Positions 7,416 to 8,140 of a DNA stretch of 64,000 nucleotides are shown here, in pieces (within the stretch, counting starts at the first letter, position 1; each line of letters starts with the position of its first letter). Location: the NCBI RefSeq assembly GCF_006345805.1, contig NC_042999.1:167028001-167092000 (forward strand), given 5' to 3'. Below the pieces are notes generated by a model. It saw nothing but the letters and a program-made list of their open reading frames with translations. It had not been told where the DNA came from and did no database searches. The position numbers and the translations under genes are program-made. Origin of the DNA: Octopus sinensis (taxonomy: Eukaryota).

Positions 7416-7471
7416 TATATATATATATGTAAATGAAAGAATGGAGTCGAACGACGATTTAACAAAATTCC

Positions 7472-7562
7472 TTTATTCTCGACATATGTTTCGAAGACTG
7501 CATATTCTTAATTCCGAAGGAAAAAAGGGTGCATTATGCCGCCTTCTCATCAGGAAAGACAA
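7472..7562 (-). ncRNA. Type I hammerhead ribozyme motif, mirror copy in the left arm
   Basis: Reverse complement has intact CTGATGA (7553-7547), stem II, GAAACATATGTC and AATAAA. Confidence 0.8.
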
Positions 7563-7697
7563 GGAACTTATTTCAGCATCATGACGAACAAAAACTTTTA
7601 GATGACTGCCCACAGGGAGTCCATAGTGATAATGAGTGGACTTCGTGTGGGCAGTCATCTAAAAGTTTTTGTTCGTCACGATGCTGACATAAGTTCG

Positions 7698-7788
7698 TTG
7701 TCTTTCCTGATGAGAAGGCGGCATACTGCACCCTTTATTCCTTCGGAATTAAGAGTATGCAGTCTTCGAAACATATGTCGAGAATAAA
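7698..7788 (+). ncRNA. Type I hammerhead ribozyme motif with palindromic stem III
   Basis: CTGATGA 7707-7713; stem II GAAGGC.GCATACT/AGTATGC.GTCTTC; GAAA 7768-7771; stem III ACATATGT; cleavage triplet GTC 7777-7779; stem I TTGT(C)TTTC/GAGAATAA. Confidence 0.82.
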
Positions 7789-8140
7789 GGAATTTTGTTA
7801 AATCGTCGTTCGACTCCATTCTTTCATTTATTTATAGTAAAAAAATACACAAATTTCCACACGAAAGTACGTAATTTCTGGCCTTGGCATGTAGCTTCAA
7901 CCGTGTTTTCTGGCGTAAATTTGCTACCCGGGTATCGGTTAACCGAATTATCCATACTAGGATAATTCACTTAACTACTAATATATATATGTATGTATAT
8001 ATGTATGTATATATATATAGATATATATATAATATACTATATATATATATAATATATAATATATATATATAATATATATATATATCTATAATACACATAT
8101 ATATATATATATATATATATTATCTATATATATATATATA

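Follow-up and report, generated by a model that had tools for sequence, protein, structure and literature searches.

The closest described relatives of the feature discussed here are the EN+ Penelope-like elements (PLEs), for which the available parts of PMC3846280 and PMC8557442 report head-to-head inverted 5'-truncated copies, a one-ended tail, microhomology at the junction and an Asn-rich insert between reverse transcriptase (RT) and endonuclease, all of which recur in our material. For Hydra-clade PLEs, such as Penelope-13_HM and Hydra-1_Obim, the accessible sections of PMC8557442 list further traits in common with our family: a C-terminal GIY-YIG domain, DKT, RW, no CCHH, CxxC/CxH around a conserved E and N, a hammerhead near the 3' end and targeting of (TA)n. 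Indeed, the entry there for Penelope-13_HM gives hammerheads on both strands and an inverted copy that is 5'-truncated, so that two outward-facing hammerheads are already published in kind. The same source, in those sections, calls open the formation of PLE inverted copies and tails, the role of the hammerhead and the targeting of microsatellites. In vitro, as far as the excerpted text of PMC11167929 goes, the PLE of an anole cleaves both strands and extends them, with RT starting at two sites that bound the tail; this element (Poseidon PAc of Anolis) also resembles ours in its AT-rich target, its hammerhead is protein-assisted, and a predicted dimer is reported.

Set beside these systems, a feature near the start of the window (the whole stretch of 64,000 nucleotides of Octopus sinensis DNA that was analysed) is an ordinary kind of PLE insertion, and inverted PLE copies with a hammerhead per strand are already in print. 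Very probably it consists of two 5'-truncated, hammerhead-bearing PLE terminal repeats lying head to head in (TA)n, likely the product of one event in which both DNA strands primed RT of the same element RNA at two start sites. The locus itself is a dead stub, and it is the statistics of the family, rather than the locus, that carry the interest: the pairing of one short end with one long end (the S+L rule) yields a sharp prediction to put to the in vitro assay of PMC11167929, in whose available portion strand asymmetry of the start sites is not reported. The family also departs from the described ones in several respects. Its tail measures 149 nt against 30-40 nt for EN+ PLEs in the consulted parts of PMC3846280 and PMC8557442, where a one-ended tail is described as optional, whereas here it can be counted, in 161 of 163 cases; its stem II domain has 54 nt against about 10-25 nt for the Hydra-clade hammerheads listed in PMC8557442, from whose octopus family Hydra-1_Obim it is separate by hammerhead and protein, compared by eye; and its ORF begins some 250 nt past the cut site, whereas that of Poseidon PAc begins inside the ribozyme. 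Non-LTR retrozymes, as portrayed in the available text of PMC7229834 and 10.64898/2026.07.22.740005, are alike in their type I hammerhead, short palindromic stem III and short non-coding repeat, but they are direct tandem units with one hammerhead each, whereas our feature is head-to-head and a fragment of a coding element whose parent ORF exists. In the papers that our literature searches listed, judged by title, abstract or available text and without Repbase, Dfam or Arkhipova 2006, we found neither a count of the S+L rule nor a description of this family.

A palindrome with two hammerhead motifs

An earlier note on this DNA, made from the letters, had described an inverted repeat with two outward-facing hammerhead motifs, and both are real (Table 1). 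The repeat pairs 7430-7623 with 7637-7830 over 194 bp, with no indels and eight mismatches (7505/7755, 7523/7737, 7534/7726, 7563/7697, 7572/7688, 7581/7679, 7615/7645 and 7617/7643), one of which disrupts distal stem I and three of which fall within the stem II domain; its centre of symmetry is unique, with 203 of 250 positions pairing there against 51-80 at 19 adjacent centres. The boundaries needed to be redrawn: the right arm does not stop at 7830, being element sequence on to 7979, and the supposed 13-nt loop at 7624-7636 is element sequence held by the left arm only, which runs to 7638. That none of the eight mismatches lies in the catalytic core is true but uninformative, the chance probability being 0.57. 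Against the reference by which insertions were classed (L067), the short-ended (S) arm, at 1094-1308 of locus L114, corresponds to 2329-2543, its final few bases being TA flank, and the long-ended (L) arm, at 1307-1649 of the same locus, to 2344-2686 (94%). Beginning at 2329 and 2344, the arms form a near-maximal run-off pair, one of 11 among 132 two-piece insertions with both arms beginning in the same 35-nt zone. The window copy has neither the ORF nor the TATA-like motif that lies upstream, and is probably inert.

Table 1. Parts of the insertion and its flanks, in window coordinates
Feature	Position	Strand	Basis or detail
Short-ended (S) arm: 5'-truncated PLE terminal repeat, from putative transcript start zone to S end	7430..7638	-	locus L114 and arm pairing
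Long-ended (L) arm: same PLE terminal repeat, likewise 5'-truncated, with tail	7637..7979	+	L114 alignment
Head-to-head junction overlap, 2 nt microhomology	7637..7638	.	L114 alignment, junction survey
Apparent loop: element 5' sequence in left arm only; probably part of Inr-like motif	7624..7636	-	
Tail, 149 nt, right arm beyond palindrome	7831..7979	+	
Left flank, remains of the (TA)n target	7415..7429	.	
Right flank, remains of the (TA)n target	7980..8135	.	
Type I hammerhead motif, 54-nt stem II domain, 2-bp stem III in 8-nt palindrome	7691..7795	+	
Mirror hammerhead motif	7465..7569	-	CUGAUGA 7553-7547, GAAA 7492-7489, predicted cut after 7481

The core letters of the hammerhead are complete on each strand; on the plus strand CUGAUGA (7707-7713) is followed by stem II (7714-7767), GAAA (7768-7771), ACAUAUGU (7771-7778) and C17 at 7779, with a GUC site, a predicted cut after 7779 and AAUAAA at 7783-7788. 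Since Rfam gave no hammerhead match in 7430-7830, even at E<=1, the identity of the motif rests on these letters, which are complete in 232 of 280 copies, and on covariation. The latter, which the earlier note had proposed as a test, is present among genomic copies: in 16 chosen subfamily representatives 91.7% of 432 cells are paired, 7 of 27 pairs are doubly changed (six of them in stem II), and none of 500 shuffles reaches the score, although the sequences are related, so that the score is inflated and is not a probability. Between six subfamilies about half of the stem II and 5' flank columns differ, compared with 4 of roughly 18 core and stem III columns. Individual copies decay in the core as elsewhere (core columns deviate in 1.3%, the median other column in 1.5%), and the ribozyme would have been selected in master elements, not in the window copy. 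In a young sister family 30 of 30 copies have exchanged the stem III palindrome for a different one, which is what a role for dimers would predict (PMC4209133, in the part available).

As a monomer the hammerhead fold lies 3.3 kcal/mol above the minimum, and the computed energies are -334 kcal/mol for the hairpin of the full foldback and about -24 for the hammerhead. The idea that the RNA must choose between hairpin and ribozyme finds no support here: with both motifs pointing outward, RNA read through the insertion from either side begins with the antisense arm and contains only one sense ribozyme, and neither a switch nor a cis dimer would be expected.

The surroundings deserve a brief word. 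At window 7097-7414 lies what we take, from its A/B-box pattern, to be a tRNA-like SINE; it is also present in L007 and stops at the (TA)n tract that received the insertion, and transcription continuing out of it would be antisense to the left hammerhead. On the other side, a U6-like fragment at 8140-8202 (38.2 bits, below the gathering score of 44) has another short repeat behind it, possibly as a U6 chimera, and further away there are minus-strand RT ORF fragments at 39167-40827 and 24713-25195, presumably LINE-like by their motifs.

The parent family

The earlier note was right to link the arms to PLE terminal repeats: in 30 of 30 loci, all fetched using the GIY-YIG protein, an arm lies downstream of the GIY-YIG match. 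They belong to a Penelope-like retrotransposon family of more than 1,000 copies, with 2,281 first-look candidates in the genome for an arm query and 1,057 exact matches to a 27-mer of the hammerhead motif (reversed control, 0), and in longer copies a GIY-YIG frame lies upstream of the arm. One copy (L064) has a 787-aa open frame for RT and endonuclease, with YRDD and YQC..YIG. The family ORF is 38% identical to P0028, which carries a precomputed PF00078, and among named homologs the nearest belong to Argonauta hians (42% and 39%), which, together with the microsatellite load, points to an octopod host. Its Pfam GIY-YIG match (E=0.001) scores 19.7 bits, below the 22.6-bit cutoff; Pfam gave no RT match in two family ORFs or seven homologs, and a PDB sequence search with the RT region no match at E<=10.

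The unit is about 3.6 kb long, with the hammerhead some 550-630 nt downstream of the ORF stop and the ORF start about 250 nt downstream of the hammerhead cut site. In full-length copies the tail extends roughly 55 nt further into the ORF start codon, which is the partial-tandem layout of PLEs, and it leads into the ORF start in 15 of the 30 loci examined. The element has, in short, what defines an EN+ Penelope-like element: an ORF for RT and GIY-YIG, a partial-tandem pLTR, inverted 5'-truncated copies, a one-ended tail and a hammerhead. In contigs of four runs guessed to be RNA, which reveal neither ends nor strand, terminal repeat and tail are far deeper than the ORF of L380.

The family ORFs show the Hydra-clade DKT in place of DKG (as SDKT), RW with L for K, which we counted as the RWK trait, no CCHH, and CxxCNSE and CxHW in the endonuclease. 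The CxCx5C linker before the endonuclease, kept in 7 of 7 outside homologs that span the region, is absent from 33 of 33 distinct linkers, with an Asn-rich stretch of roughly 143 aa instead, and the family is therefore filed as a Hydra-like variant and not as a plain member; the published Hydra proteins were compared by eye only, and the label rests on motifs. It is apparently an undescribed, Hydra-like, linker-less family. The cysteine linker is thought to drive (TA)n targeting, yet this family without it inserts into (TA)n: the flank is TA-rich at 91 of 107 S ends and 89 of 119 L ends, against a background of 5-7%.

Two features around the L end of full-length copies may be mentioned. In L380 (4335-4470, minus strand) and L066 (4790-4925, minus strand) a stem of 12 bp plus 5-6 bp encloses the L end and closes just ahead of the ATG; z is -3.5 to -4.8 at three full-length junctions, and with double changes absent in 12 copies this hairpin is unproven. 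Conserved CAG/GTATC donor-like and TACAG acceptor-like motifs around the L end delimit a candidate intron of about 65 nt, for which the contigs of the four runs guessed to be RNA contained no splice joint.

One short end and one long end

Because the 149-nt tail distinguishes the two ends easily, the S+L rule can be counted. Among 335 distinct chains, from loci that are top matches plus the first listed pattern matches and not a full census, 161 are head-to-head S+L (at least two of these being tandem duplicates), 2 are L+L, both from one duplicated event, and none is S+S; 111 more are single-ended, 25 are cut by a locus edge and 36 are otherwise arranged. The single-ended copies divide into 54 S and 57 L, so that about half of the pairs should match by chance. 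In newly fetched loci the rule holds in 42 of 42, and in 30 loci of the sister family each of the 10 adjacent inverted partners stops at L where the other end is S, as judged by eye. Short opposite stubs in 104 single-ended chains number four S stubs on L, two L stubs on S and none like-with-like, and 98 of the 104 have no opposite stub of at least 11 nt; with 111 of 335 chains single-ended, dual priming is thus not obligatory, or often erased. The arms of one insertion differ at 12 of 287 diagnostic non-CpG subfamily sites, against 45% with shuffled partners (60 insertions).

How might such pairs arise? In the mechanism that we favour, element protein would cut both strands of (TA)n, and one cut 3' end would prime at S and the other at L, 149 nt downstream, on the RNA of one source. 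Both cDNAs would extend towards the RNA 5' end, in the window nearly to the transcript start, and would then be joined head to head, in the window at the 2-nt microhomology; the arms here would be long and alike because both cDNAs ran nearly that far. Strict pairing of two different priming sites is what the genomic products suggest, and overlapping arms need one RNA stretch copied twice, which two RNAs of one source copy fit equally. The 132 two-piece insertions have junctions with an overlap of 1-15 nt in 84 cases, blunt in 7 and with extra bases in 41.

The same insertions bear on the alternative of self-priming snap-back, proposed for rotifer Penelopes from palindromic junctions (PMC3846280, available sections), in which a single cDNA or RNA folds on itself through a short palindrome and its first arm then serves as template for the second. 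Symmetric junctions are indeed commoner than in shuffles (31 of 132 against 11), some with overlaps of 10-13 nt, and part of this symmetric class could arise so. A copy cannot exceed its template, however, and in 73 of 132 insertions, the window's included, the S arm, which has no tail to donate, outreaches the L arm on the 5' side, while in 36 of 132 the L arm is tail-only; together these counts rule out copying one arm from the other, exclude snap-back for most copies and leave it improbable as the general explanation.

Considerably less probable again is the reading of the earlier note, a foldback element, non-coding and non-autonomous, whose palindrome would move as a fixed unit. The 11 insertions with both arms in the same 35-nt zone do look alike, but they have 10 distinct junction coordinate pairs (L326 and L338 being the same), consistent with independent run-off to one RNA start. 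Among the remaining copies the inversion centres vary from copy to copy and the outer ends are unequal, so that the palindrome does not recur with one centre; dispersed copies lack the fixed centre and matching termini of a foldback or MITE-like element, and only 31 of 132 simple head-to-head insertions hold a whole hammerhead in both arms. Two independent insertions into one (TA)n tract, or a later inverted duplication of the DNA, are a shade more improbable still: such tracts do accept nested sister-family insertions (L386, L388), but a junction without TA spacer, arms with common subfamily variants and the S+L rule would all be unexpected. A regulatory hairpin or ribozyme switch retained by the host is as poor a candidate, since although a 194-bp hairpin would form given read-through of the locus, the arms depart from the family's most frequent letters 4 and 6 times, much like other copies, core columns deviate about as much as others, and the window's ORF list, with exons outside its scope, holds repeats and LINE-like fragments only.

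Returning to two-site priming on both strands, we also entertain, tentatively and with the odds against it, the wider reading that these insertions record the PLE reaction in vivo, with one ribonucleoprotein, one RNA site per strand and cDNA run-off at the transcript start or the hammerhead cut. If true, this would be genomic evidence for an animal PLE hammerhead cleaving germline templates, and for (TA)n targeting without a cysteine linker.

Where the arms begin

Of 80 pieces at risk, 51 stop at reference 2325-2349 (25 of 38 and 26 of 42 in two samples, for both of which the patterns used lay downstream of the cut site), with few stops immediately upstream. This zone lies directly behind TGACGTCA-TATAA and covers an Inr-like motif, and the arrangement is present in 51 distinct copies; transcription would start here, if sequence context is a guide.

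A second class, which emerged post hoc, lies at the cut site. When the L arm starts at 2485-2505, just past the cut at 2486/2487, the S arm does likewise in 10 of 11 insertions (5 of 5 and 5 of 6 by sample), where 2.4 are expected by permutation, whereas with the L arm starting elsewhere the S arm begins in this stretch in 10 of 88; the coupling peaks at 2485-2505. This suggests a 5' end that belongs to the molecule, that is, a cleaved template, and hammerhead cleavage of templates in vivo may thus have occurred, although we would sooner bet against it. Only one arm starts exactly at the cut, several junctions of this class use local AAA/TTT microhomology, one (L119) crosses the cut site, and at 2498 the reference differs from most copies, so that alignment ends pile up at 2499. 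That 5' ends are simply more frequent at the cut site was likewise seen post hoc and was unconvincing (hazard 0.0066 per nt against 0.003-0.006 nearby), leaving only the two-arm coupling, and two pieces that end at the cut base (L327 and L354) are explained by a tandem expansion and an internal deletion. For the anole PLE, the available part of PMC11167929 reports that no RNA-seq reads ending at the cut site were found.

Several individual copies are worth recording. In L129 the tailed arm begins exactly at the predicted cut, and the junction of L231 leaps into stem II from just past the cut. At the putative transcript start in L016 (968-1485), short inversions alternate over 97 nt, which suggests repeated template switching, and whole head-to-head units occur two to three times in tandem in L372 (3040-4671), L348, L144, L194 and L150, by duplication or assembly artefact. 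Lastly, the younger sister family (L386-L415, for example L392 and L397), in which an apparently shared 5' boundary was an artefact of an incomplete reference, has the same long-stem-II hammerhead with a GUA site and a ACACGUGU palindrome, together with a homologous tail; it lacks the cysteine linker, and its endonuclease frames are intact. Its copies are 97-99% alike, which suggests that a usable protein may be found and makes it the best candidate for biochemistry.
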